Shown here: in pieces, positions 4,286-51,957 of the stretch
Position numbering within the stretch: the first letter of the stretch is position 1
Layout: every line of letters starts with the position of its first letter
NCBI GenBank assembly: GCA_045131435.1
Contig: JBGUQW010000110.1
Coordinates: forward strand, 177 to 64,176
Length of the DNA: 64,000 bases
Reading direction: 5' to 3'
DNA from: Prevotella sp.
GTDB taxonomy: Bacteria; Bacteroidota; Bacteroidia; Bacteroidales; Bacteroidaceae
Made by a program: the position numbers and the translations under genes
The notes under the pieces: generated by a model
Told to the model about the DNA's origin: nothing
The model's database searches: none
What the model saw: only the letters and a program-made list of their open reading frames with translations

Positions 4286-5965
4286 ATGCTACAAATCCGC
4301 TGCAAGAACAATGGCGTCACCAAGAGTTTCCCTGAAGGATGCTCCCTATTAGACGTTTATCAGGAGTTTGCCGACGACATCAAACTCCCCTACCCTGTGG
4401 TCTCGGCCAAAGTGAATAATGCCTCGCAAGGACTAAAGTTCCGTCTCTATCAGAATCGCGATGTAGAATTCCTCGACGCCCGTGAGGGAAGTGGTCATCG
4501 TGTCTATGTCCGTTCCCTGTGCTTCCTGCTCTACAAAGCTACGCAGGACGTCTTTCCCGGGTCAAAGCTTTTCATTGAGCATACCATCTCGCGTGGCTAC
4601 TACTGTAACTTCAAGAAGAAGGGCAACGAGGTGCTGTCCGATGGCGACGTAGAACAGATTTACAATCGCATGAATGAGATAGTGAATCTGGACATGCCGT
4701 TCCGACGCACTGAGGCGACGAACGAAGAAGCCATCCGCGTCTTTGCCGAACGGGGCTTTGCAGACAAGGTGAAGCTGCTGGAGACCAGCGGACAGATATA
4801 CAGCGACTACTACATGCTGGGCGATACTGCCGACTACTACTATGGTCCGTTGGTGCCCAGTGCGGGTTATTTGAAAGTATTCGGACTGGAGCCCTACCAC
4901 GACGGTATGCTGCTCCGCGTACCCGACTGGAATAACCCCACCATATTGGCCGAGAAGGTCGACATGCCTAAGACCTACGAGATGTTTGCTGAAAAGACCC
5001 GTTGGGACATCATCATGCGTCTGTCCAATGCCGGCGATGTCAACAGAGCCATCCTGAAAGGGCACGCCTCAGAGCTGATTCAGGTCAGTGAGGCCCTGCA
5101 GGAAAAGAAAATCGTACAGATAGCAGAGGATATAGACCGTCGTTTCCACGCCGAAGAGAATCCCATCCGCATCGTGCTCATCACAGGACCGTCATCATCG
5201 GGAAAAACCACGTTCTGCAAACGTCTAAGCATTCAGCTGCTGGCATGTGGACTGCGTCCGCTATCGTTCTCGACAGATGATTATTTCGTCAACCGCGTCG
5301 ATACGCCAAAATTACCCAACGGCGACTACGACTTCGACAACATCGAAGCTGTCGACTACCATCTGCTGGAGGATCACCTGACAGCTTTGATGAATGGCGA
5401 ACGCGTGGAGATTCCTGAATACAACTTCTCGACAGGCAAGCGCGAGTGGAACGGTAAGAAAATCAAACTGGGAGGCGACACGGTGCTGATCATCGAGGGC
5501 ATCCATGCACTGAATCCCTTGTTGACCAAGAAGATAGAAGACTCGCTGAAGTACAAGATCTATATCTCAGCACTGACCAGCATCTCACTCGATGACCACA
5601 ACTGGATTCCGACACGCGACAACCGTCTGCTGCGCCGCATCATCCGCGACTATAACAAGGGAGCCTTTACGGCTCAGGAAACCATTGCCCAATGGAAGAA
5701 CGTCTGCGAGGCCGAAGACAAATGGATTTTCCCCTATCAGGAGACTGCCGATGCGATGTTCAACTCGGCGCTGAACATCGAGTTTGCCGTACTCCGTACC
5801 CATGCAGAAATCATTCTGGCCTCCGTACCCCGCAACTGCGCTGAGTACGCCGAGGCCCACCGGCTGCTGAAGTTCATCCACTACTTCCTCCCTGTCTCTG
5901 ACAAGGAGATTCCACCCACCAGCATCATGCGTGAGTTCGTGGGTGGCAGCAGCTTTAAATATTAA
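4286..5965 (+). CDS. nucleoside/uridine-kinase-like P-loop protein with a TGS-like N-terminal domain
   Basis: P-loop ITGPSSSGKTTF and a PRK/uridine-kinase-like C-terminal half. I moved the start to ATG 4286 because the track start overlaps the TATCTTTG -7 box at 4259-4266. Confidence 0.7.
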   Translation: MLQIRCKNNGVTKSFPEGCSLLDVYQEFADDIKLPYPVVSAKVNNASQGLKFRLYQNRDVEFLDAREGSGHRVYVRSLCFLLYKATQDVFPGSKLFIEHTISRGYYCNFKKKGNEVLSDGDVEQIYNRMNEIVNLDMPFRRTEATNEEAIRVFAERGFADKVKLLETSGQIYSDYYMLGDTADYYYGPLVPSAGYLKVFGLEPYHDGMLLRVPDWNNPTILAEKVDMPKTYEMFAEKTRWDIIMRLSNAGDVNRAILKGHASELIQVSEALQEKKIVQIAEDIDRRFHAEENPIRIVLITGPSSSGKTTFCKRLSIQLLACGLRPLSFSTDDYFVNRVDTPKLPNGDYDFDNIEAVDYHLLEDHLTALMNGERVEIPEYNFSTGKREWNGKKIKLGGDTVLIIEGIHALNPLLTKKIEDSLKYKIYISALTSISLDDHNWIPTRDNRLLRRIIRDYNKGAFTAQETIAQWKNVCEAEDKWIFPYQETADAMFNSALNIEFAVLRTHAEIILASVPRNCAEYAEAHRLLKFIHYFLPVSDKEIPPTSIMREFVGGSSFKY

Positions 5966-6007
5966 AGATGAAAGATGAAAAATTAAAAATTAAAAATTAT
6001 AAATTAA
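5964..6007 (+). repeat. heptamer array 2x AAGATGA plus 4x AAAATTA between the kinase-like gene and menD
   Basis: 7-nt periodicity. Stops fall in two of the three + frames. Confidence 0.7.
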
Positions 6008-9048: not shown

Positions 9049-10029
9049 CTACTTAAACAGTGAATACTCAGGAATGGTCCATGCCAAGGCAGCAGCACCC
9101 AGCACCTCACGCTCACGATTGTTCATCTGGGACAGCACAATCTTGATGCTGTCACGCATATTACCAAAAACGTGGTCGTTGAAAGACTGGCGCGTAGGCT
9201 CTAACAGCCACTTGCCTGCCTTGGAGATACCACCCGCCAAAATGATCATCTGGGGGTCGATGATACTGGCGTAATTAGCCAGACCAAGACCCAGCATATA
9301 TCCAGTACGACGATATACCTCAATGGCCAGTTCATCGCCTCTCTCACAGCACTCGGTAATATCTCGCGGCGTCAAATTCTCAATGTCACGCATCAGAGAA
9401 GGCGCATTGCTTTCAGCCATCAACTCCTGGGCTGTTTGAATAATACCATGAGCAGCACAATAGGCCTCCATACAACCTTCCTTGCCACAGCCACACTTAC
9501 GACCATGATCAACAATACAGGCATGTCCTACCTCTCCTGCAAACCCTCGGAAGCCACGATGTCCGCGACCACGGGAAAAGAAACAACTGCCAAAGCCGAT
9601 TCCCAGTGACACCACAATGAAGTCCTTCATACCATGGGCTGTACCATAACTGAATTCACCCAAGGCAGCTACGTGTGCATCGTTAGCCACTGCCACTGCC
9701 ATACCCAAACGGTCGCGCATCATGGCAGCCAAGGGGATGGTCCCCTTCCATGGAAGATTGGGAGCATTGACAATGCATCCGTTCAGAAAATTAGCACTTG
9801 GACAACTGATACCCACCGAACGCACAGACATAAAGCCGCCATTGGCCTCCATCAATTCTATCATACTATCCACCAGTTTTGATACAAACTGATTGACGTT
9901 GGGGAAAACAGATGTCTCAAAGCTGTTTTCAGCAATAATGTTTCCACGGATATCAACAATGGCATAAGCCGTCTGCTCGTTGCCAATATCAATACCCATG
10001 ACCCGTGATTTAACAATCTCTTCTTCCAT
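9049..10029 (-). CDS. ROK-family sugar kinase (paralog 1)
   Basis: GIDIGNEQT phosphate-1 motif, NDAHVAALGE catalytic-Asp motif, and the zinc motif GHACIVDHGRKCGCGKEGCME. Confidence 0.85.
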   Translation of the reverse strand: MEEEIVKSRVMGIDIGNEQTAYAIVDIRGNIIAENSFETSVFPNVNQFVSKLVDSMIELMEANGGFMSVRSVGISCPSANFLNGCIVNAPNLPWKGTIPLAAMMRDRLGMAVAVANDAHVAALGEFSYGTAHGMKDFIVVSLGIGFGSCFFSRGRGHRGFRGFAGEVGHACIVDHGRKCGCGKEGCMEAYCAAHGIIQTAQELMAESNAPSLMRDIENLTPRDITECCERGDELAIEVYRRTGYMLGLGLANYASIIDPQMIILAGGISKAGKWLLEPTRQSFNDHVFGNMRDSIKIVLSQMNNREREVLGAAALAWTIPEYSLFK

Positions 10030-10066
10030 AATAATAGTTGTTATAGTCAGTTATAATTATCCTTGT

Positions 10067-11047
10067 CTATTTAAATAATGAATATTCTTCAACCTCCCAG
10101 GCCAAGGCACTGGCACCTACCACATCGCGTTCACTGTCGTTGATGATAGACACCATCAATGGAGACTTGCCACGGATATTGTGGAACACATGCTCGTCGA
10201 ACGACTGTTGGGTCGATTCCTCCAGCCACTTCCAGGCCTTCGTCAGTTCGCCTGTCAGGATCACAGCCTCAGGATTAATGACGGAGGCATAGATGGACAG
10301 GCCAATGCCCAGCATCTCGCCAGTACGGCGATAGACCTCCTTCGCCAAGACGTCGCCCTGGTCACAACAAAGACCTATGGCTTCTGGCGTCAGATCCTGC
10401 AAAGCACGCATCAGGCTGGGTTCCGAACGCTCTGCCATCACCTCACGAGCCGTCTGTGCAATGCCACGTTTGGAAGCATACTCCTCCAAACAACCTTTCC
10501 GGCCACAGCCACACTGTCGGCCACCATCCTTAATACAGATATGTCCCACCTCACCGGCAGAACCAGATGTACCCAGATGCGGATTGCCATGTGAGTAGAA
10601 ACAGCTGCCCACACCGCCATGTCCCAATGAAATGACAATGAAGTTCTTCATACCATGAGCAGAGCCATAGACGCGTTCTCCAATAGCTGTCACATGGGCA
10701 TCATTGGCAAGGGCCACTGCCAGACCTAAGCGGTCACGCATCATAGCAGCCATCGGAATGACACCCTTCCACGGCATATTGCCTGCATTCTCAATACACC
10801 CTGTCAGGAAGTTACCACTCGGGGCACTGATACCCACCGAACGCACTGTCTCATAACCACCATTGGCCTCAACTAACATGATGATCTTTTCGCTGAGCAT
10901 ATTCACGAAATCATTCACGTTAGGGTAGTCAGGCGTATGAATGCGGTCTTCAGCAATGATAAAACCACGAATATCCACAACAGCATAAGTGGTAAACTCT
11001 ACGCCGATGTCGACACCGACTACTCTGGTTTTTATCGTCTGACTCAT
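10067..11047 (-). CDS. ROK-family sugar kinase (paralog 2)
   Basis: GVDIGVEFT, NDAHVTAIGE and GHICIKDGGRQCGCGRKGCLE. It has the same 326-aa length as its two neighbours. Confidence 0.85.
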   Translation of the reverse strand: MSQTIKTRVVGVDIGVEFTTYAVVDIRGFIIAEDRIHTPDYPNVNDFVNMLSEKIIMLVEANGGYETVRSVGISAPSGNFLTGCIENAGNMPWKGVIPMAAMMRDRLGLAVALANDAHVTAIGERVYGSAHGMKNFIVISLGHGGVGSCFYSHGNPHLGTSGSAGEVGHICIKDGGRQCGCGRKGCLEEYASKRGIAQTAREVMAERSEPSLMRALQDLTPEAIGLCCDQGDVLAKEVYRRTGEMLGIGLSIYASVINPEAVILTGELTKAWKWLEESTQQSFDEHVFHNIRGKSPLMVSIINDSERDVVGASALAWEVEEYSLFK

Positions 11048-11067
11048 ATTGGTTCTCTTTCGTCTGA

Positions 11068-12048
11068 TTACTTAAACAACGAATATTCTTTCACATTCCA
11101 AGCCAGCACACTGGCTCCCAAGAGGTTGGCCTCACTTTCATCAAAATGCGAGAGGAGGAACTTCACCTTGCCTTCAACATTATGAAATACATGCGAGTTA
11201 AACGCATCTATTGCAGGATTCAACAAACAATCACCATAACGTGCAACCTTACCTGTGAAAATAATAGCCTCAGGATTGACCATCGAAGCATAGTTGGCCA
11301 GTCCGACACCCAGCATGTAGCCTGTACGCCGCATGACCTCGAGGGCTAAGACATCACCTTCATTGCACAAAGCAGAAACGATATCGGCAGACAACGCTTC
11401 CACGTCTCTCATCTTGGAGGGCTCACTACTTTCAGCCATCAGTTCCTTGGCAGTCTGGACAATACCCCTTCGCGAGGTATACATCTCCAGACATCCTCTA
11501 TTGCCACACCCACAGAGACGTCCGCCTTGTTTGGCACAAGTATGGCCTATCTCGCCTGCAAACCCGCTACGTCCTAAATGTGGCTGTCCATTGGAGAAGA
11601 TGCAACTGCCCATTCCACTGCCTAATGTTATCAGAATGAAGTCCTTCATACCATGAGCCAAGCCATAAGCTTGTTCACCTAACGCACGGACATGGGCATT
11701 GTTGCCCAATGCCACAGCTAATCCCATACGGTCTCTCATCATGGCAGCCAAAGGCACTACCCCTTTCCATGGCAGATTAGGGGCATTCTCAATACAACCT
11801 GTCAGGAAATTTGCACTGGGACAACAGATGCCTACCGAGCGAATACTCTCATATCCGCCATTAGCCTCCACCAGATTCACAATATTTTCACTGAGTCTGG
11901 ATGCAAAGTCACCCACATTGGGATTGTCGCCAGTGGGGAAGTCATCTTTGGCTATCACGTTGCCTCGTACATCCACAACAGCAGTTGTCGTACTTTCCAA
12001 ACTGATATTGACACCTACAACTCGCGTCTTAGTCATCTCGTATATCAT
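11068..12048 (-). CDS. ROK-family protein (paralog 3), with both conserved Asp residues replaced by Asn
   Basis: It has GVNISLEST in place of DxGxT and NNAHVRALGE in place of NDAxxAAxGE. The zinc motif CGCGNRGCLE is intact. It is the first gene of the three-gene run. Confidence 0.8.
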   Translation of the reverse strand: MIYEMTKTRVVGVNISLESTTTAVVDVRGNVIAKDDFPTGDNPNVGDFASRLSENIVNLVEANGGYESIRSVGICCPSANFLTGCIENAPNLPWKGVVPLAAMMRDRMGLAVALGNNAHVRALGEQAYGLAHGMKDFILITLGSGMGSCIFSNGQPHLGRSGFAGEIGHTCAKQGGRLCGCGNRGCLEMYTSRRGIVQTAKELMAESSEPSKMRDVEALSADIVSALCNEGDVLALEVMRRTGYMLGVGLANYASMVNPEAIIFTGKVARYGDCLLNPAIDAFNSHVFHNVEGKVKFLLSHFDESEANLLGASVLAWNVKEYSLFK

Positions 12049-12225: not shown

Positions 12226-13956
12226 ATGAACGTATTAGAACTTAGTGAACAAGAGATTGGCAGACGCGAAAGTCTGCAACAATTACGGCAAATGGGTATC
12301 GACCCGTATCCAGCCGCAGAATATCCCACCAATGCATTTTCAACAGAAATCATAGATAGCTTCAAGGACGATGATGAGCCCCGTGAGGTAAGCATTGCAG
12401 GCCGTATGATGAGCCGTCGTGTGATGGGCAAGGCTTCGTTTGTAGAATTACAGGACTCTAAGGGCCGCATTCAGGTGTATATAACGCGTGATGACCTGTG
12501 CCCTGGTGAGGACAAGGAGTTATATAATACGGTGTTCAAAAAGTTGCTGGATATTGGTGACTTTATTGGCATCAAGGGTTTTGTGTTCCGTACGCAGACA
12601 GGAGAAATTAGCGTACACTGTAAAGAGCTGACACTGTTGTCAAAGGCCTTGAAGCCCCTGCCTATCGTCAAATATAAGGACGGTGTGGCCTACGATAAGT
12701 TTGATGATCCTGAACTGCGTTATCGCCAGCGTTATGTCGACCTGGTGGTGAACGAGGGCGTAAAAGATACTTTCCTAAAGCGTGCCACCATCATCCGTAC
12801 CCTGCGCAGCATCCTTGATGGTGCTGGTTACACGGAGGTTGACACGCCCATCCTGCAGAATATTGCAGGTGGTGCATCGGCCCGTCCATTCATCACCCAC
12901 TTCAACGCGCTCAACCAAGATATGTATATGCGTATCGCTACTGAGCTCTACCTGAAGCGACTCATCGTTGGTGGTTTCGAGGGCGTCTACGAGATGGGCA
13001 AGAACTTCCGCAACGAGGGTATGGACAAGACCCACAATCCGGAGTTTACCTGTATGGAGCTCTACGTCAGCTATAAGGACCTGCTGTGGGGTATGACCTT
13101 CACCGAGAATATGCTCGAGCAGATTTGTACGGCTGTCAACGGCAAGCCCGAGGTGGAGATCGATGGCAACATCATTTCATTCAAGGCGCCTTTCCGTCGT
13201 CTGCCTATCCTCGACGCCATCAAAGAGAAGACCGGTTTCGACTGCGATGGAAAGTCTGAGGACGAGATTCGCCAGTTCTGCCTCTCTAAGGGCATGGAAG
13301 TCGACGAGACCATGGGTAAGGGTAAGCTTATCGACGAGCTCTTTGGTGAGTTCTGCGAGGGTTCATTTATCCAGCCTACCTTCATTACCGACTATCCCGT
13401 TGAGATGTCTCCTCTCACCAAGATGCACCGTTCTAAGCCCGGTCTCACTGAGCGTTTCGAACTGATGGTGAATGGTAAGGAGCTGGCCAACGCCTACTCT
13501 GAGCTCAACGATCCTATCGACCAGGAGGAGCGCTTCATTGAACAGATGAAGTTGGCTGACAAGGGCGACGACGAGGCGATGATCATCGACCAGGACTTCC
13601 TGCGTGCCCTGCAATATGGTATGCCTCCAACGTTTGGTATCGGTATCGGTATTGACCGTCTTGTGATGCTGCTCACAGGCAAGTTCACTATTGGCGAGGT
13701 GATGCTGTTCCCGCAGATGAAGCCAGAGAAGAAGATTCCGCAGTCTACACCTGCTGAATGGGCTGCTGTAGGCGTTGCCGAAGAGTGGGTACCCGTACTG
13801 CGCAAAGCTGGTTTCAACCTCGTGCAGAACATCGCCACAGAGAAGGCTCAGGGATTGCAGCAGAAGATTGGTGACATCGTCAAGAAGTACAAGCTCGACA
13901 TGCAGAAGCCTTCTGTCGACGCAATCGCTGCATGGATAGAGAAAGCTAACAGCTAA
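12226..13956 (+). CDS. lysS: lysine--tRNA ligase
   Basis: Class IIb aaRS blocks FRNEGMDKTHNPEF and GIGIGIDRLVMLL. The start is set at ATG 12226, downstream of the TACCTTTG box at 12188-12195. Confidence 0.95.
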   Translation: MNVLELSEQEIGRRESLQQLRQMGIDPYPAAEYPTNAFSTEIIDSFKDDDEPREVSIAGRMMSRRVMGKASFVELQDSKGRIQVYITRDDLCPGEDKELYNTVFKKLLDIGDFIGIKGFVFRTQTGEISVHCKELTLLSKALKPLPIVKYKDGVAYDKFDDPELRYRQRYVDLVVNEGVKDTFLKRATIIRTLRSILDGAGYTEVDTPILQNIAGGASARPFITHFNALNQDMYMRIATELYLKRLIVGGFEGVYEMGKNFRNEGMDKTHNPEFTCMELYVSYKDLLWGMTFTENMLEQICTAVNGKPEVEIDGNIISFKAPFRRLPILDAIKEKTGFDCDGKSEDEIRQFCLSKGMEVDETMGKGKLIDELFGEFCEGSFIQPTFITDYPVEMSPLTKMHRSKPGLTERFELMVNGKELANAYSELNDPIDQEERFIEQMKLADKGDDEAMIIDQDFLRALQYGMPPTFGIGIGIDRLVMLLTGKFTIGEVMLFPQMKPEKKIPQSTPAEWAAVGVAEEWVPVLRKAGFNLVQNIATEKAQGLQQKIGDIVKKYKLDMQKPSVDAIAAWIEKANS

Positions 13957-13970
13957 TAGCTAACAGCAAG
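13944..13970 (+). repeat. heptamer array AGCTAAC/AGCTAAT/AGCTAAC at the lysS stop
   Basis: TAA at 7-nt spacing falls in all three + frames. The lysS stop is the second unit. Confidence 0.75.
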
Positions 13971-20672: not shown

Positions 20673-20718
20673 GGTACGAAAAAAAAATGAGCTGACCAAA
20701 CGGTCAGCCCACTTTTTG
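20673..20718 (-). terminator. intrinsic terminator after the small ORF (hairpin GCTGACC-AAAC-GGTCAGC)
   Basis: A perfect 7-bp stem followed by a U-run on the minus strand. A T5 run also follows on the plus strand. Confidence 0.7.
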
Positions 20719-20723
20719 TTTAC

Positions 20724-20900
20724 TTAGTTACCAAGCAGGGCATCCCACTCGTCGCCCTCAAAGAGGGCGGGGGCCATGGAGCTGCCGGGATTCTGCGGGT
20801 TGTCCATGTGGTAGCCGTCGCCGCCGCTACCTGCCAGCAGCTGTTGGTTCATGTTGATGTCTATCGCCTCCATCCGAGGCGCGGAATATTGTTTTTTCAT
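20724..20900 (-). CDS. small hypothetical protein (58 aa), possibly an exported or leader-type peptide
   Basis: An ORF starting MKKQYSAPRMEAIDINMNQQLLAGSGGDG, followed by a hairpin plus U-tract terminator. There is no homology evidence. The start was chosen at the MKK methionine. Confidence 0.3.
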   Translation of the reverse strand: MKKQYSAPRMEAIDINMNQQLLAGSGGDGYHMDNPQNPGSSMAPALFEGDEWDALLGN

Positions 20901-20919
20901 TGTTCTTCTTTTATAATTT

Positions 20920-20947
20920 TGAGTGTTGAATGTTGAGTGTTGAATGG
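20920..20947 (+). repeat. heptamer array TGTTGAG/TGTTGAA
   Basis: Four TGA at 7-nt spacing cover all three + frames. Confidence 0.75.
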
Positions 20948-20975: not shown

Positions 20976-21048
20976 AATTTTCAATTATTCATTGATCAAT
21001 CGCCGAAGGCGACCATTCCTCATTCCTCATTCCACATTCCTCATTTTA
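20976..21048. repeat. composite element: AT-rich heptamers, a GC hairpin TCGCC-GAA-GGCGA (21000-21012), then CATTCCT heptamers
   Basis: The architecture and hairpin core (AATCGSCGAAGSCGAC) match the element at 51885-51957. The LRR stop codon lies in the right-hand array. Confidence 0.7.
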
Positions 21049-22966
21049 TCACTACTTTTCGTCCGTTATTGATGTAGATTCCCTTCTTCGTTGGCTTCTG
21101 CGAGAGCTTGCGGCCACTCAGGTCATACCACTCCCCTCCATATAGGGAGGGGCTGGGGGTGGGTCTGAGGTTCGTCGTCTCGCCCTCATAAATCCACTGG
21201 AATCCCGCTGCATTGTTGCTGAGGTTCAGTTGATTGGTGGGCAGTGAGAGGTACGCCTTGTTGGCGCCGATGGCTCCGGCCTCAGAGAGCGTGTACCAGT
21301 CGATGCCGTAGTTGCCGTTGGCCAGGATGAAGTTCGTGTTCGTGCTGGTGGTCACGGGTACCTCAGTCGTAGCGTCCGTCACACCGACCAGGTAGTTCTG
21401 GGCAGGCGCACTGGCGCTGGTGGCGACTGGTACGGTGAATGTTGTGCTGGGTGTACCCTTCAGCAGCAGGCCTGTACCGGCGGGTACTGCGCCGACACTG
21501 CTCAGCGTCAGTGTGCCTGCTGTGCCGTCGAATGCGCTGACGATGTATGCCGACAGTCCAGCGATGCCCGTGAAGTCGAGCGCCTGGGTGCTGGCATAGG
21601 TCATGATGCCTGCGCTGTTCATGGTCACGGTGCAGGCGAGGGGGAGGAATTCTTCGGTGCCGCTGTATGTCAGGTAAGCCGTCTGGGCGACGATGTCATC
21701 GGTGTCGCTGAGACGGTAGAAGCCTATGCCGTCGCTGCCATTTTTCAGCATGTAGGCATTGCCCGGGTTGGTGATTCTGGTCATTTTTCCTTCAAGTCTG
21801 TTGCTATTGTAGCTGTGAGTGCTGCCCGAAGCTGCATATTCAGGCTGAATGCTACTTGATGCAGACTTCAGCACCACGCCCTTGCCCTTGTTGATGATGC
21901 GGTCAGGAATCTCCACCAGCTTCAGAGAAGTGCCGCTGAGCGTCACTTTGAATACCTGCGTTCCTGAGGGCGCCTGAGCGTTGGAGAGATTGTTGAAGTA
22001 TGTTGCCCAGTACTCGCCCGTCTCTGCTTCTTCGGCAGGGATGGTGATGGCCTCTATCCTGCTTGCATAGTCGCTCCAGCCACTCTTATAGGTATCGACA
22101 CATCCGTTGAATACGTGAATCTTAAGTTTTGCATTTGTGCCTGCGAAAGCAGTGCTACTATACGTAGTCAGACTTGGCGCATAGATGGTTGCTGACGTCA
22201 GGTTTTCATTATTGCACCCATAGAAGGCATAGTTGCCAATGTGCGTTACGCCTTCATCGATAACGATGCTTGTGATAGAGGCACGGTCAGAGTACCATGG
22301 GGCATTACCTGCTGAATAATCCGCCATTGCTCCCATACCGCTGATCATCAGTACGCCATACTGTGCCAGCACCCACGTCACTTCACTTTCGTGCCCAGTT
22401 GTGCCGCAGTTTCCCATGCCATCATAGCCCATTATGATGCTGGATTTGTCAGACCAATTGGCGGCAGCTTTGTAATCATCAACACTAGCTGTAGGCACAT
22501 ATATTGTTGTAAGGGCAGAGCATCCATCAAATGCCTTGGTGCCCAGCGTTGTTAACGGAAACAAGCGTTTTACGGCAACTGTAGTAAGCTTGCTACATAT
22601 ATTGAAAGCATAATTACCGATACTCTTCATGCTGGAGGGAATCTCAATAGATGTCAGATTGCTACAACGATTGAAAGCATAGTCACTAATGTGGGTAATG
22701 TTATTATCGATAACCACCGTTGTGATGTTGTCCCTAAAAGAGAACCATGGGGTTTGATCCTTAGTGTAGTCCCACATCTCTCCTGTACCGCTGATGGTGA
22801 GGGTCTCGTCGGTGCCGTCGCTATTGGTGTCGGTCATGGTCCATGTGACGTTATCACCACAGTAGCCATCACTGACTACTGCGGCGGTGCCGGTGACGTC
22901 GGTGCTGGTGCCGCTACCCGTCCATGCCCATGCCGTCTGTGCGGTCATCGTGAGCAAAAAGTACAC
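21041..22966 (-). CDS. BspA-type leucine-rich-repeat surface protein with a T9SS C-terminal sorting domain
   Basis: Repeated units of the type IxxYAFxxCxxLTSIxIPSS, and a C-terminus WYDLSGRKLSQKPTKKGIYINNGRKVVIK. The 5' end is unclear: either a GTG start at 22966, or ATG 23036 plus a 1-nt frameshift (see finding). Confidence 0.8.
   Translation of the reverse strand: MYFLLTMTAQTAWAWTGSGTSTDVTGTAAVVSDGYCGDNVTWTMTDTNSDGTDETLTISGTGEMWDYTKDQTPWFSFRDNITTVVIDNNITHISDYAFNRCSNLTSIEIPSSMKSIGNYAFNICSKLTTVAVKRLFPLTTLGTKAFDGCSALTTIYVPTASVDDYKAAANWSDKSSIIMGYDGMGNCGTTGHESEVTWVLAQYGVLMISGMGAMADYSAGNAPWYSDRASITSIVIDEGVTHIGNYAFYGCNNENLTSATIYAPSLTTYSSTAFAGTNAKLKIHVFNGCVDTYKSGWSDYASRIEAITIPAEEAETGEYWATYFNNLSNAQAPSGTQVFKVTLSGTSLKLVEIPDRIINKGKGVVLKSASSSIQPEYAASGSTHSYNSNRLEGKMTRITNPGNAYMLKNGSDGIGFYRLSDTDDIVAQTAYLTYSGTEEFLPLACTVTMNSAGIMTYASTQALDFTGIAGLSAYIVSAFDGTAGTLTLSSVGAVPAGTGLLLKGTPSTTFTVPVATSASAPAQNYLVGVTDATTEVPVTTSTNTNFILANGNYGIDWYTLSEAGAIGANKAYLSLPTNQLNLSNNAAGFQWIYEGETTNLRPTPSPSLYGGEWYDLSGRKLSQKPTKKGIYINNGRKVVIK
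21131..21161 (-). repeat. C-rich/G-rich palindromic mini-element, in frame in the LRR gene (inside the T9SS CTD)
   Basis: The sense strand reads cacccccagcccctcc-ctatat-ggaggggag, which encodes TPSPSLYGGE. Confidence 0.7.
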
Positions 22967-23088
22967 AAAGGGGACTTTTTGTGTACTTCGGCAGCATCAC
23001 TGCCGCCCGGAAAAAAATCTGACTTGTCTTTGTCATATCGTTATTTCTTTTGAATGCCAAAACGTTTTAATGATTTAGTTTACGTCTG

Positions 23089-23096
23089 CAAAGGTA
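23089..23096 (-). promoter_or_regulatory. -7 box TACCTTTG (LRR gene)
   Basis: Consensus match, about 50 nt upstream of ATG 23036. Confidence 0.55.
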
Positions 23097-23181
23097 CGAA
23101 TAAATGGGGATAACACAAAATAATTATGTATTTTTATCCCTACAGTATCGCTGCCCGTTATCAAACAAAACCTCCATAGAG

Positions 23182-23244
23182 TGCAACTGATACCTTTCTG
23201 CTGTGCAGCTGATACCTCTCTGGTGTGCAGCCGATGCTCTCCTG
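23182..23244 (+). repeat. 3 x 22-bp repeat TGCARCYGATRCYYTYCTG (array A', inverted relative to array A)
   Basis: Copies start at 23182, 23204 and 23226. Confidence 0.85.
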
Positions 23245-23271
23245 GAGTCCAACAAAGGCCTCCATTATTAG

Positions 23272-23353
23272 CAAATTCAGTTAATTTTTTCTGCAAATTC
23301 AGTTAATTTACTCAACAAATTCAGTTAATTTACTTAGCAAATTCAGTTAATTT
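23272..23353 (+). repeat. 4 x 22-bp-spaced repeat CAAATTCAGTTAATTT (array B)
   Basis: Perfect 16-mers start at 23272, 23294, 23316 and 23338. Confidence 0.9.
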
Positions 23354-23403
23354 GCAAAGGCTATTATGCGAATTTGTAAAGCAAAGGATTAGCTTGTGCA
23401 CAG

Positions 23404-23466
23404 CAGAAAGGCATCGGCTGCACACCAGAAAGGCATCGGCTGCAAAGCAGAAAGGCATCGGTTGCA
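23404..23466 (+). repeat. 3 x 22-bp repeat CAGAAAGGCATCGGYTGCA (array A)
   Basis: Copies start at 23404, 23426 and 23448, on the same 22-bp lattice as array B. A degenerate fourth copy follows. Confidence 0.85.
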
Positions 23467-23503
23467 GAACTGGGAGGTATCGGAAGGATGCCAAGCGACG
23501 GAT

Positions 23504-23540
23504 AAAAAAAGTGGGCTGACCAAACGGCCAACCCACTATT
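23504..23540 (-). terminator. intrinsic terminator after GH31 (23559-26501)
   Basis: GTGGGTTGGCC-GTTT-GGTCAGCCCAC followed by T7 on the minus strand. The sequence is related to the 20681-20718 terminator. Confidence 0.7.
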
Positions 23541-26510: not shown

Positions 26511-26546
26511 GTTATTGTTGTTATTGTTGTTATTGATTTTATTGAT
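26511..26546 (+). repeat. 4 x 9-bp tandem repeat GTTATTGTT / GTTATTGAT
   Basis: It lies in the 73-nt spacer between the sensor stop and the GH31 start. Confidence 0.8.
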
Positions 26547-26574
26547 GCTATAGTGAATATAGAAACTATCGGTG

Positions 26575-45965: not shown

Positions 45966-46000
45966 TCATTCCTCATTTCTCATTCCTCATTTCTCATTTA
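45966..46000 (-). repeat. heptamer array (TGAGGAA/TGAGAAA on the minus strand) just downstream of the fkp stop
   Basis: Five minus-strand TGA at 7-nt spacing cover all three frames. Confidence 0.75.
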
Positions 46001-46004
46001 GATT

Positions 46005-48608
46005 TTAGCTCCTGCTAACCTGTAGGCCCTTCTTGGAGAGCGTCATATCGACGAAGCGGGCATTGGGATTGGGTTGTGCCTCGTTGATGACCTGTTTGAT
46101 GCGAGCCGCAGCCTCAGGATCCTTAGCCACCATGTAGAGATAGCCTCCCCCACCCGCTCCAGGCAGCTTATAGCCCAGACAGAGGTCATCGACAAGGTCA
46201 GTGATGCATCGCACACTGTCAGGATTGGTACCGCTGTCGATGAGCTGGTTCTGCTGCCACGTCCTGCGGATGAGTCGTCCCATCTCCTGGAAGTCCTGAC
46301 GCTGGATGGCCTCGTACATATCGATGGCATGTGCCTTCATGGCCCGCAACTGACGCAGTTCACCACCGTGGTTGAGGAACATGCGGCGTACAATCTCTGC
46401 CAGAATGGTCTTGGCCGTACGTGTGATGCCAGTGTAATAGAGCAGATGACACTGCCTGTATTCCGGTTGGATGAAGACATCGTCGGGCAACCAGCGCACC
46501 AAGGGGTCTTGGTTGAAGCCGCGTTGCGTCTGCAACAATTTCACGCCACCCAATATGCCGCCAAACTGATCCTGCCAGCCACCGCCAGTGGTCAGCAGCT
46601 GTTCGAGCATCAGGGTACGACGGCCTATCTCGTTCTTGTCCCATGCCAGCGAACAGAAATCGCTCAAGGCACCCAGTACGGTCGATGCCAGGATGCTCGA
46701 CGTACCCAGTCCACTGCCTGCAGGAACGGCCGACAGCAACGTCAGTTCGATGCCTGTTCCAAAGGCCTCCAACTGCTGACGCAGCGAGGAAAAGTTCTCC
46801 TGTGAAAAGGCCGGCAGGAAGCCCGCTAAGGCCAGTGCCGCCTTGGGAATGGAGAACGGCGAGCCTACCTTGTTATATTCCGCCAACTGCTCGTAGGTCT
46901 CAATGACTTCCCTCGCTCCGAGGTCGATGCTACGAAGTACGATATGCGGTTCACGGCAGGGCTTGACAAAGGTCTGCAGTGGTGGCTGTCCATTCAGCTC
47001 TATGGCGATGTTCACCACGTTGCCACCCTCCATCAGACAGTAAGGCGGTGTGTCTGTCCAACCGCCAGCCAGGTCGATGCGGACGGGTGAACGTCCCCAC
47101 ACAATTTGGTCTGGATAGACGGAGAGATGTGGGGTGGCAGGTGCTGGATGATGAGTGATACCCTGACGCAGCAGCGAGAAGGCCTGCTGGCTATTGCCAC
47201 GGAACATGGCATCATGGATGCGCGTCATCAGGGGTGCCGTATCGCTAAGGGGTTCTGGCATGGGTAGTTGCGCCTCGCTGAATTCATGGAAGGCATCGTC
47301 GAGGTCAAGCTGATAGAACACCGAGTGCTGCCAGTTCTTGGCCAATGCCGGCCAGTTCTGCTTGCGGAAGGTGCGACGCTGTTCAAAGAGTCTGCGCAGA
47401 TTGACACGCTCAGCGAGTTCGTTGCTGTTTAGAGCCTCATCGATACGATAGCGGCGTACCTCATAGTCGCTATCGCCCACAGGTGCCACATCAATGCACT
47501 CGCCAGGCTCCAGATGCACCTCCCAGTCGTTCTCGGGAACCCCCGTCACGATATTGTCGTGGGTCAGTGTCCATCGCGGTCCGATGTAGCTGTTCTCCAC
47601 CCAGATATTGTAGTTGTCAGCCGTAAAAGGATAGTGGCAGATACTGTTCTGCGTAAAAATGCTGGGGTGTGGCTTACGGTCGTTGTGCATGATGTCACGC
47701 TGGTCGTTGACGACGTTCTGGATGGCCACCGTCGAGGAAATCATTTCCTTTGACGTCCCAAAGTGGTAGAACTCGCCACCTGGCAGGGGCACAATGGCCA
47801 CGCTAAGCTCATGCAGTTCAGGGTCAGCGATGGTGGGATCGGTGCCAAGGGCACAACCGAATTCCGAGTAGAGGTCGTATTCTTTGAGGTGATGGGTGTT
47901 GGGTGATGGGTGATGGGTGTTGGCATCATCCTCCGCTTGACACCTATTACATAACAACTTGACGGCACGGTCGCTGAGCATCCAGATACCAATATCAGTC
48001 AGGTAGAAGTGGTCTTTCAGTAGTTCTGAAAGGCGTTCTACGCTGGGCTTCTGCAGCATCTGCTTCAATACAGTAGGTGTACGGCGGTCGCTGACAAACA
48101 CACCGTGATTCTTGGCGATACTGGCATCGAGCCACAGACCGTAGCATACCACGTCGGCATCGGGAATCTGGCCGATACGCTCAGCAGCTCGGATGTAGAC
48201 GTCGCCACTGACAATCATCGTGGTCAGGCGTTTCGGTGCCTGTTCCATCATGCGCTCATAAAGCGGCAGCTGCAGGTCGAGCAGCGTCTGACTGAGGCGC
48301 TGTCCGCGTTCCCAGCGGAATACGGGGATAGGTGTCAGAATCTTGCCACTGACAGCATAGGCAGGCAGTCGCTTGCTTTGTCCACCGGCATGCAGGATGA
48401 TGCGCTTTTCCTTTGACAGCCAGTCGGAGAACGACTGACCACCATCTTCTGCCTGCCACGCTTGCTGAAGCAGCCATGTAGTGCCACCACCGGATCCTAA
48501 CCGATGACCGATAGGGTCACAGGTGCAGAAATACTCGTCACGCGACAGTCCCGTCACGTCGTGGAAACAGTCCACCAGATTCGGTGGCAACGACAGCAGC
48601 TTTTTCAT
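46005..48608 (-). CDS. fkp: bifunctional L-fucokinase / fucose-1-phosphate guanylyltransferase-like protein
   Basis: C-terminal GHMP-kinase motif VPAGSGLGTSSILAS and an N-terminal nucleotidyltransferase-like half. The size and layout resemble Bacteroides Fkp. Confidence 0.8.
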   Translation of the reverse strand: MKKLLSLPPNLVDCFHDVTGLSRDEYFCTCDPIGHRLGSGGGTTWLLQQAWQAEDGGQSFSDWLSKEKRIILHAGGQSKRLPAYAVSGKILTPIPVFRWERGQRLSQTLLDLQLPLYERMMEQAPKRLTTMIVSGDVYIRAAERIGQIPDADVVCYGLWLDASIAKNHGVFVSDRRTPTVLKQMLQKPSVERLSELLKDHFYLTDIGIWMLSDRAVKLLCNRCQAEDDANTHHPSPNTHHLKEYDLYSEFGCALGTDPTIADPELHELSVAIVPLPGGEFYHFGTSKEMISSTVAIQNVVNDQRDIMHNDRKPHPSIFTQNSICHYPFTADNYNIWVENSYIGPRWTLTHDNIVTGVPENDWEVHLEPGECIDVAPVGDSDYEVRRYRIDEALNSNELAERVNLRRLFEQRRTFRKQNWPALAKNWQHSVFYQLDLDDAFHEFSEAQLPMPEPLSDTAPLMTRIHDAMFRGNSQQAFSLLRQGITHHPAPATPHLSVYPDQIVWGRSPVRIDLAGGWTDTPPYCLMEGGNVVNIAIELNGQPPLQTFVKPCREPHIVLRSIDLGAREVIETYEQLAEYNKVGSPFSIPKAALALAGFLPAFSQENFSSLRQQLEAFGTGIELTLLSAVPAGSGLGTSSILASTVLGALSDFCSLAWDKNEIGRRTLMLEQLLTTGGGWQDQFGGILGGVKLLQTQRGFNQDPLVRWLPDDVFIQPEYRQCHLLYYTGITRTAKTILAEIVRRMFLNHGGELRQLRAMKAHAIDMYEAIQRQDFQEMGRLIRRTWQQNQLIDSGTNPDSVRCITDLVDDLCLGYKLPGAGGGGYLYMVAKDPEAAARIKQVINEAQPNPNARFVDMTLSKKGLQVSRS
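47888..47923 (+). repeat. GT-rich heptamer array, a G4 motif, inside fkp
   Basis: ggtgatgggtgttgggtgatgggtgatgggtgttgg. The antisense reading gives NTHHPSPNTHH. Confidence 0.8.
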
Positions 48609-48638
48609 TGACCATTGAACGTTGAACGTTGAACATTA
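48606..48638 (+). repeat. heptamer array CATTGAC/CATTGAA/CGTTGAA/CGTTGAA/CATTATT between the YfhO-like gene and fkp
   Basis: Four + strand TGA at 7-nt spacing cover all three frames. Confidence 0.75.
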
Positions 48639-51885: not shown

Positions 51886-51957
51886 TTCTCAATTCTTAAT
51901 TGTTAATCGGCGAAGCCGACAACTCTTAATTCTTAACTCTTAATTCTTAATTCATAA
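51885..51957 (+). repeat. composite element: AATTCTY heptamers, a GC hairpin CGGC-GAA-GCCG (51908-51918), then CTTAAYT heptamers
   Basis: It fills the mtnN-luxS spacer. The right-hand array has TAA in all three + frames. Confidence 0.75.

Follow-up and report, generated by a model that had tools for sequence, protein, structure and literature searches.

Between a GH31 gene and a leucine-rich-repeat (LRR) gene of Prevotella sp. lies an intergenic lattice of 22-bp repeats, which we analysed within a 64,000-nt stretch of contig JBGUQW010000110.1 (assembly GCA_045131435.1); this whole stretch is called the window below, and positions are counted from its first letter. The lattice is far from anything expected by chance. 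Comparison with other Prevotella loci identifies it, by homology, as a gene-less orphan of a previously undescribed family of lattices that occupy the promoter regions of HU-HIG genes, carried here on what appears to be a recently exchanged cassette with the LRR gene. Few DNA-binding families of gut and rumen Bacteroidota are as expanded, or as poorly understood, as the HU-HIG proteins (PF18291, HU/IHF superfamily). With moderate confidence, we interpret the lattice as an orphaned paralogue of the repeat-built control region found ahead of HU-HIG genes in rumen Prevotella, one that would serve as a platform for cooperative protein binding, possibly by HU-HIG itself. A first-pass annotation, made from the letters of the window, had described the repeats; that the array is without an HU-HIG gene, that its -7 box has decayed and that the LRR cassette brought it in are findings beyond that annotation.

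Architecture of the lattice

Three arrays with an exact 22-bp period occupy positions 23182-23466, in the order A' (three units), B (four units) and A (three units). Their coordinates, sequences and common register had all been given in the first-pass annotation, and all of them held when the sequence was re-read, when it was scanned with Tandem Repeats Finder, and when motif counts were compared with expectation. The scan delimits three period-22 arrays, at 23181-23235, 23270-23353 and 23397-23466. The B 16-mer, CAAATTCAGTTAATTT, matches exactly at 23272, 23294, 23316 and 23338 (n = 4), and with up to three mismatches it is found five times (0.29 expected), a count equalled in 0 of 100 shuffles. 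Matches to the A 19-mer, CAGAAAGGCATCGGCTGCA, lie on the plus strand at 23404 and 23426 with no mismatch and at 23448 with one, and on the minus strand at 23182, 23204 and 23226 with three mismatches each, giving six on both strands where 0.02 are expected. Neither motif recurs elsewhere in the 64-kb window, which thus holds one copy of the lattice, and a tandem-repeat scan of the window found no second period-22 array.

B and A share one frame (23272 + 6 x 22 = 23404), and the phase slip of +2 bp from A' to B is taken up by a single 24-bp unit at 23248-23271. Once degenerate units are counted, the true extent of the lattice is approximately 23160-23488, or about 15 units in ~330 bp; the units are contiguous, with 3-6 bp separating their cores, and the flanks read ATAGAG/TGCAAC on the left and GTTGCA/GAACTG on the right, the slash marking the edge. 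A' and A are inverted relative to each other, and the description of the whole as an imperfect palindrome was confirmed by a repeat search, which returned inverted arms at 23182-23251 and 23397-23466 (70 nt, 83% complementary, 145 nt between them). The midpoint of the arms is 23324 and that of units B1-B5 is about 23324, thus the arms are symmetric around five B units, the fifth being a variant (Table 2). A half-site pattern search further resolved each B unit into a 17-bp quasi-palindrome, CAAATT-N5-AATTTG.

Homologous lattices upstream of HU-HIG genes

When metagenome contigs were scanned for two neighbouring B units, three loci emerged, L020, L021 and L022. On L022, a 1.5-kb rumen contig, five A' units, four B units with a variant fifth, and four A units lie between xseB and a gene of 150 aa, whose product is an HU-HIG protein (PF18291, E = 9e-24; TIGR01201, HU_rel). 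A further locus, L145, carries an HU-HIG gene that is 90% identical to that of L022 and also adjoins xseB. Window positions 23150-23500 are collinear with both loci, unit for unit, at a mean column identity of 81%, and the internal orientation of the lattice is the same in all three.

Bacteroidetes promoters have -33 and -7 elements, with TAnnTTTG as the consensus of the -7 box. In L022 and L145 such a box, TACCTTTG, follows the variant fifth B unit; the window reads TTAGCTTG at the same place (23389-23396). In these two loci the A arm is transcribed leader, located after the -7 box and before the HU-HIG start codon. In the window, the GH31 terminator stands directly after the A arm, in the place that the HU-HIG gene has in the native loci, and a tblastn search with 22 HU-HIG proteins found no HU-HIG gene or remnant in the window, in L020 or in L021. 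The window copy is an orphan on the ground that it has no such match, and it cannot do the native job because the HU-HIG gene and the consensus -7 box are both gone. The first-pass annotation had considered that the repeats might prove to be part of a longer known element. The motif search did place them in a larger recurring element, namely the HU-HIG upstream region, though not in one that was previously known.

Lattices across HU-HIG lineages

The HU-HIG sample consisted of homologues of the L022 protein with 50-90% identity (21 clusters), which gave seven further lineages on contigs and eight in all; all of it comes from a single clade, in metagenomes of rumens and bioreactors. A period-22 array of 3-5 dyad-symmetric, AT-rich 17-bp units is present in 8/8 lineages, that is, in every one with upstream sequence (Table 1), and these arrays end about 35-70 bp before a TAnnTTTG box. 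The central bases change between them. What stays constant is a shared frame, YAAAWT...AWTTTR, along with period, position, 17-bp width and a copy number near four. Dyad symmetry is retained despite the change in sequence, as in TAAATTC.AGT.GAATTTA, TAAAATCG.C.CGATTTTA and TAAAATGA.T.TCATTTTA. An HU-HIG relative of 30% identity, on an IMG/VR contig, also has a 22-bp repeat (2.1 copies) about 80 bp before TACCTTTG. In the Prevotella DNA retrieved for comparison, 207 kb in all, such arrays were found only upstream of HU-HIG genes, at the window locus and its four orthologues, and at L020 and L021. No description of upstream repeats was found in the literature on PF18291, TIGR01201 and HU-like paralogues, and the family is previously undescribed.

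Table 1. Central repeat units upstream of HU-HIG genes in the seven further lineages.
HU-HIG protein (locus)	Unit	Copies
P0121 (L145)	(T/C)AAATT(C/A)AGT(G/T)AATTTG	3 + 1 variant
P0123 (L146)	TAAATTCAGTGAATTTA	about 4
P0126 (L169)	TAAATACACTGAATTTA	3.8
P0137 (L154)	CAAATTAACTGAATTTG	3.8
P0135 (L157)	YAAAATCGCCGATTTTR	4
P0131 (L161)	TAAATTCAGTGTATTTA	3
P0140 (L156)	TAAAATGATTCATTTTR	4

Flanking arrays are optional and specific to lineages. Inverted arms belong to the lineage of P0121, L022 and the window, and are 85% complementary in L145. P0123 is flanked by unrelated 22/23-bp and 44-bp arrays, P0137 has a left flanking array only, and P0126, P0131 and P0135 have none. In the P0123 lineage (L146-L153) the leader contains a 44-bp tandem unit that includes a small hairpin, GGCCTGcaaaCAGGCT, and is present in roughly 1, 2 or 3.2 copies depending on the sample, with a distance from -7 box to ATG of 105 nt for one copy, 149 nt for two, and longer otherwise.

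Two further arrays are of the B type and lack both A arms and an HU-HIG gene. In L021 (957-1048) the neighbours of the array are genes for an ECF sigma factor and a CE2 esterase, and a TACCTTTG box follows after about 70 bp; in L020 (4886-4948) they are a VWA-like gene and, about 360 bp downstream, a GFO/IDH/MocA oxidoreductase gene. In one of the three L020 units the central 5 bp are inverted with respect to the rest.

The HU-HIG contigs L150, L158, L160, L163, L164 and L156, most of them very short, stop 10-250 bp upstream of the gene, within the lattice. That many HU-HIG contigs end inside the lattice suggests that lattices are multi-copy within genomes and break assemblies.

A 2.8-kb cassette and variation among strains

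In the window the lattice sits between the GH31 terminator and the LRR promoter, with both neighbouring genes on the minus strand (Table 2). The first-pass annotation had likewise placed it downstream of the terminator and upstream of the LRR promoter. Its distance from that promoter is about 60-380 bp, with 62 bp to the outer A' edge. The two copies of the 37-nt terminator repeat are 86% identical, are spaced 2824 bp apart, and bracket the lattice, the LRR gene and an open reading frame (ORF) of 58 aa. In L018, a more distant relative with a GH31 that is 84% identical, two GH31 genes lie 12 bp apart with neither LRR gene nor lattice between them. Because L018 has the GH31 genes without the block, lattice, LRR gene and 58-aa ORF are, from this comparison, a 2.8-kb insertion bounded by duplicated terminators. 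The LRR protein has only two clusters of close homologues (97% and 86% identity), both at this locus.

Table 2. Features of the lattice and its flanking genes in the window.
Feature	Position	Strand	Evidence
Terminator hairpin T2, right copy of 37-nt direct repeat	20680-20716	-	repeat search
BspA-type leucine-rich-repeat gene, 635 aa from ATG at 22948	21041-22948	-	Pfam LRR_5, E = 4e-30
Putative LRR promoter: TTTG 23119-23116, 19-nt spacer, TACCTTTG 23096-23089	23089-23119	-	read from sequence; agrees with the -33/-7 consensus of Bacteroidetes
Outermost degenerate A' unit, ATCAAACAAAACCTCCATAGAG	23160-23181	+	ACCTCC in common with mirror unit 23470-23488; inverted arms reach into it
A' array, core TGCARCYGATRCYYTYCTG at 23182, 23204 and 23226; inverted copy of A	23182-23247	+	repeat searches; unit-by-unit alignment with left arm of L022/L145
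24-bp degenerate linker, TCCAACAAAGGCCTCCATTATTAG	23248-23271	+	aligns with innermost left-arm unit of L022, TGCAGTTGCGGCCTCCCTCTTCAG
B array, four perfect CAAATTCAGTTAATTT units	23272-23353	+	motif shared, on the same lattice, with arrays before the HU-HIG genes of L022, L145 and L154, and with the isolated arrays of L020 and L021
Fifth, variant B unit, GCTATTATGCGAATTTG	23360-23376	+	conserved: L022 has ACTATTCATTGAATTTG, L145 has GCTATTGATTGAATTTA; overlaps the HU-HIG promoter's -33 region there
Degenerate unit	23382-23400		read from sequence
Remnant of decayed HU-HIG promoter -7 box, TTAGCTTG vs. TACCTTTG in L022/L145	23389-23396	+	three-locus alignment, columns about 245-256
A array, three 22-bp units, core CAGAAAGGCATCGGYTGCA	23404-23466	+	repeat searches; homologous to right arm of L022/L145
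Outermost degenerate A unit, CTGGGAGGTATCGGAAGGA	23470-23488	+	fourth family copy, 81% over 43 nt
Terminator hairpin T1 of GH31 (23537-23510), left copy of 37-nt direct repeat	23504-23540	-	terminator scan and repeat search
GH31 gene, 980 aa	23559-26501	-	Pfam

Homologues of the GH31 protein, which has no exact entry on record, place the window in rumen-type Prevotella. The locus was compared in five assemblies (the window, L017, L165, L166 and L167). All share the GH31-lattice-LRR arrangement, so that the lattice is kept in 5/5 LRR-bearing assemblies, and the LRR promoter sequence of the window is identical in the other strains. Within the lattice, strains differ by whole 22-bp units only. 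A is present in two copies in L017, three in the window, and four in L165 and L166; B in three copies in L017 and L165, and four in the window, L166 and L167; and A' in three copies in 5/5 strains. Gain and loss of units is, judging from these alleles, much faster than point mutation in the arrays. No inverted orientation was found among the five, which are consensus assemblies in which a minor orientation could go unseen.

Identity between strains changes sharply at the edge of the cassette. The last 1500 nt of GH31 are ~94% identical (L017, L165 and L166 vs. the window), and from the GH31 stop codon (23559) onward, through the terminator, lattice, LRR gene and next GH31, identity is 98-100%. 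This step at the terminator looks like a boundary of recombination or transfer. The cassette and the sequence that follows it thus have a more recent shared ancestry than the upstream gene, and it is in this short time that the unit numbers have changed.

Possible function and alternative explanations

In the native layout, 3-5 AT-rich 17-bp palindromes are set on a 22-bp lattice, with the -33/-7 promoter of HU-HIG at the end of the array. A period of 22 bp corresponds to two helical turns, which places all sites on the same face of the DNA. In the lineage closest to the window, the B array and promoter are bracketed by two more 22-bp arrays, mutually inverted, A' upstream and A in the leader. 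The B palindromes would act as cooperative sites for a dimeric protein that binds and bends DNA. Cooperative binding by a regulator was one of the readings offered in the first-pass annotation, and it fits the homologous 22-bp lattices of dyad sites located right at the HU-HIG promoters of eight lineages. The simplest candidate for the binder would be HU-HIG acting at its own promoter (autoregulation), because it is the sole gene always linked to the arrays and its fold family binds and bends DNA as a dimer. The B array is probably also bent intrinsically, given the 10- and 12-bp spacing (mean 11 bp) of its AAATT and AATTT tracts. On geometry only, a bent B apex could bring A' and A side by side and enclose the promoter in a loop. 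The window copy would then be a predicted binding platform without its gene, 62 bp upstream of the LRR promoter, having arrived as the edge of a cassette; it may be an inert relic, a decoy that titrates the binder, or an upstream site linking the LRR gene to the same protein.

Several observations weigh against this proposal. In the sampled lineages, palindrome type and HU-HIG protein tree do not agree: at 77% identity, P0135 and P0137 still have different palindrome centres (AAAATCGCCGATTTT vs. CAAATTAACTGAATTTG), and the more distant L022 protein has the palindrome type of P0137. B arrays without an HU-HIG gene are found in L021, L020 and the window. The only published analysis of the family saw no conserved gene linkage, argued against sequence-specific binding and judged a role of HU-HIG proteins as sequence-specific transcription factors to be unlikely (Burroughs et al., 2017; PMC5499826). 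In 4FMR, the sole solved member, the Ig domain occludes the DNA cleft (PMC5499826). An AlphaFold model of P0121 is of low confidence (pLDDT, the predicted local distance difference test, 68.5), Foldseek matches of this model to 4FMR, IHF and HU are weak (E > 0.01), and a sequence search of the PDB gave no match; these structure results carry no weight beyond the family assignment. Finally, the conservation of the lattice among strains is, on the identity profile, a matter of recent cassette ancestry rather than of demonstrable selection.

Strict paralogue-specific co-evolution of palindrome and HU-HIG was also considered, and is weakened by the mismatch between P0135 and P0137. The mismatch possibly favours shape readout of the shared A/T frame, exchange of arrays, or a different binder.

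What HU-HIG proteins recognize could be approached directly, as the ordered cis-element before every sampled member supplies DNA probes for testing recognition. The gene-less copies beside other genes, here the LRR gene, suggest a route by which HU-HIG could reach other targets, and the locus offers a natural allele series that differs only in whole repeat units and is suited to tests of binding-site dosage. A more far-reaching version of the proposal, which we regard as speculative, is that HU-HIG proteins, a large and fast-evolving expansion of the HU family in Bacteroidota, are site- or shape-specific binders, each cooperative on the 22-bp palindrome lattice at its own promoter; that orphan lattices are functional, either recruiting these proteins to other promoters such as that of the LRR gene or titrating them; that slippage in unit number is a fast tuning knob; and that the lattices together form the cis-code of an unseen regulatory or defence network.

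Among the alternatives, the one that survives best takes the window lattice for a functionless relic, a decaying minisatellite derived from an HU-HIG gene that was lost or never transferred. The decayed -7 box, the absent HU-HIG gene and the degenerate outer units all agree with this, as does a copy number that drifts freely between very close strains, and conservation is accounted for by the recent ancestry of the cassette. However, all four B units remain perfect and the A units nearly so, the lattice is kept in every one of the five LRR-bearing assemblies, and binding sites would titrate their protein with or without a following gene. We consider a pure relic somewhat unlikely.

We give slightly less credence to the arrays being operators or upstream activating sites of another regulator, encoded elsewhere, that controls the HU-HIG genes, the LRR gene, the CE2 esterase gene of L021 and the oxidoreductase gene of L020. 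Dyad 17-mers near promoters with two-turn spacing are typical of dimeric helix-turn-helix regulators, and such a protein would accommodate both the B arrays that exist without HU-HIG genes and the failure of palindrome type to follow the HU-HIG protein tree. No candidate is consistently linked to the arrays, however, and the only constant partner, in 8/8 lineages, is HU-HIG. The palindrome centres also differ strongly (CAGTT, CGCCG, GATTC), which is hard to square with one conserved trans-acting factor.

It is improbable, in our judgement, that the lattice is a non-autonomous mobile element of the MITE (miniature inverted-repeat transposable element) or minisatellite type, similar to BrickBuilt, with a tandem-repeat core, inverted ends and a promoter, dispersed among intergenic regions, and with HU-HIG as a frequent neighbour or passenger. 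Copies do occur in unrelated gaps (GH31/LRR, xseB/HU-HIG, ECF sigma/CE2, VWA/oxidoreductase), the arms are inverted with outer ends TGCA...TGCA, and assemblies often break in these regions, which suggests several copies per genome. Whole units expand and contract between strains, as in BrickBuilt, which itself has promoter activity (PMC4596501). Against this, the flanks ATAGAG and GAACTG show no direct repeat and hence no target-site duplication, the ends fade into degenerate units instead of forming sharp terminal inverted repeats, and arms are absent or not inverted in most related lineages. Arrays diverge gradually between HU-HIG lineages at a fixed promoter position, which fits vertical descent with the gene, and what separates the filled from the empty site, in the one pair compared, is the entire 2.8-kb cassette, whose boundaries are set by terminator repeats, not by the lattice. 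The A 19-mer is missing from 185,579 species-representative genomes save for 16 single matches, all in GC-rich non-Bacteroidota and attributable to chance. Copy number within a genome could be viewed through the 64-kb window, which has a single copy, and through the scans of species genomes and metagenomes, which gave few loci.

Inversion had also been raised in the first-pass annotation, as recombinase binding or flipping of the arms. As a phase-variable switch, recombination between A' and A would flip the B segment and toggle the LRR surface protein. Bacteroidales are known for invertible promoters, and here 70-nt inverted arms enclose a 145-bp segment next to a surface-protein gene. But the arms are just 83% complementary, the segment contains no consensus promoter in either direction, no recombinase gene lies within the 64 kb, and the internal orientation is one and the same in the five assemblies and in the two HU-HIG-linked homologues. 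The idea has no support in this comparison and is very improbable.

Least credible of all are iterons or the centromere of a plasmid, integrative and conjugative element (ICE) or phage replicon, a structured RNA, or a CRISPR-like array. The 22-bp period with 3-4 copies is typical of iterons, and several phased direct repeats of 17-22 bp are present; the iteron reading of the first-pass annotation nevertheless failed, as the window is ordinary chromosome with housekeeping and glycan-utilisation genes, and the A 19-mer gave chance matches only. Positions 23150-23500 had no similarity to plasmids or phages in distant-mode blastn against 72,556 PLSDB plasmids and 50,697 INPHARED phage records, and IMG/VR returned single chance matches only for the B 16-mer and a degenerate A unit. 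The earlier statement that no replication, partition or recombinase gene is nearby was upheld by a Pfam scan of the 45 ORFs of the window, which found no rep, par, integrase, transposase, recombinase or cas gene. Folded as a single strand the lattice is very stable (-83 kcal/mol, z = -10.5), but this stability is a restatement of the inverted repeat; the native HU-HIG leader RNA (the A arm) is not more stable than its shuffles (z = +1.27), Rfam gave 0 matches at gathering thresholds, and a tRNA scan found none. The 6-bp intervals are too short for CRISPR spacers, which are about 30 bp.

Comparison with known repeat systems

The closest described object is BrickBuilt of Porphyromonas gingivalis, a 23-nt minisatellite within a MITE that is intergenic, has promoter activity, and gains and loses units between strains (Klein et al., 2015; PMC4596501). 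It has a non-repeat leader and tail, 12-bp terminal inverted repeats and 4-bp target-site duplications, with 19 copies per genome, and one copy adjoins an HU-family (PF00216) gene (PMC4596501). Both BrickBuilt and the lattice belong to Bacteroidales, are strictly intergenic, consist of ~22-23-nt repeats without real spacers, gain and lose units, are associated with promoters and have inverted-repeat ends. The lattice, by contrast, consists entirely of 22-bp units, of three types, and even its inverted ends are arrays (the two were compared by description only); its central units are palindromic, there is no target-site duplication, and the position is fixed at the promoter of one gene family. 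Should the lattice bind nothing, it would still be a new repeat family of the BrickBuilt kind, one that breaks metagenome assemblies and marks a recently exchanged cassette.

The parC/ParR centromere-operators of R1 and pSK41 consist of phased short repeats by the promoter of a small DNA-binding protein, whose dimers bind them cooperatively, with bending and autoregulation. Short in-phase repeats at the promoter of a gene for a small DNA-binding protein are common to both systems. The lattice differs in having no gene for a partition ATPase or actin-like protein and no plasmid, and its candidate binder has an HU/IHF fold and not a ribbon-helix-helix fold. Plasmid iterons, such as the 22-bp iterons of R6K, occur as several direct copies, sometimes with inverted copies that serve as rep operators. 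They share the 22-bp period and the several direct copies with the lattice, which is chromosomal, lacks a rep gene and any plasmid similarity, and shows neither DnaA boxes nor an AT-rich unwinding element in a replicon context. In the Gal repressosome, an HU/IHF-assisted loop encloses a promoter between two operator sets, with a bending HU-family protein at the apex. The geometry of A'-B-A would allow a similar loop, a purely geometric analogy, and most HU-HIG lineages have no arms.

Other observations in the window

A 34-bp palindrome, GGGATAACACAAAATAATTATGTATTTTTATCCC (GGGATAA...TTATCCC, 23107-23140), overlaps the -33 TTTG of the putative LRR promoter and could be a separate operator, distinct from the lattice. 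The LRR leader is ~134 nt long. On the minus strand at 22957-23012 it carries a GC hairpin, CGGCAGTGATGCTGCCG, and a second, AT-rich one, GTACACAAAAAGTCCCCTTTGTGTAC. TTTTT comes after the latter, only some 8 nt ahead of the ATG, a terminator- or attenuator-like arrangement; the leader has no match in Rfam.

The 58-aa ORF of the cassette (20724-20900, minus strand; MKKQYSAPRMEAIDINMNQQLLAGSGG...DEWDALLGN) follows the LRR gene and has no match in Pfam or NCBIfam. In L146, a 59-aa ORF with a similar start and acidic tail follows a 972-aa gene that adjoins the HU-HIG gene.

The rest of the window encodes menaquinone biosynthesis, LysS, GpsA, two GH31 enzymes, hybrid two-component sensors, LacI, GH2, LuxS and BipA, among others. 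Three tandem ORFs of 326 aa each, presumed ROK paralogues, lie on the minus strand (9049-10029, 10067-11047 and 11068-12048), the first of them assigned to ROK by the scan, and the region that they span (9049-12048) shows a pronounced negative GC skew. Scattered through the window are many short tandem arrays, all of period 7 except for one of period 9, in 3-8 copies of differing units, many of them exactly in short intergenic gaps; they include those at 5955-6007, 13944-13967, 20915-20946, 21014-21045, 26511-26551, 45966-45999, 48606-48637 and 51924-51957, among others. The homologous intergenic gaps of L017 likewise carry short-period tandem arrays.

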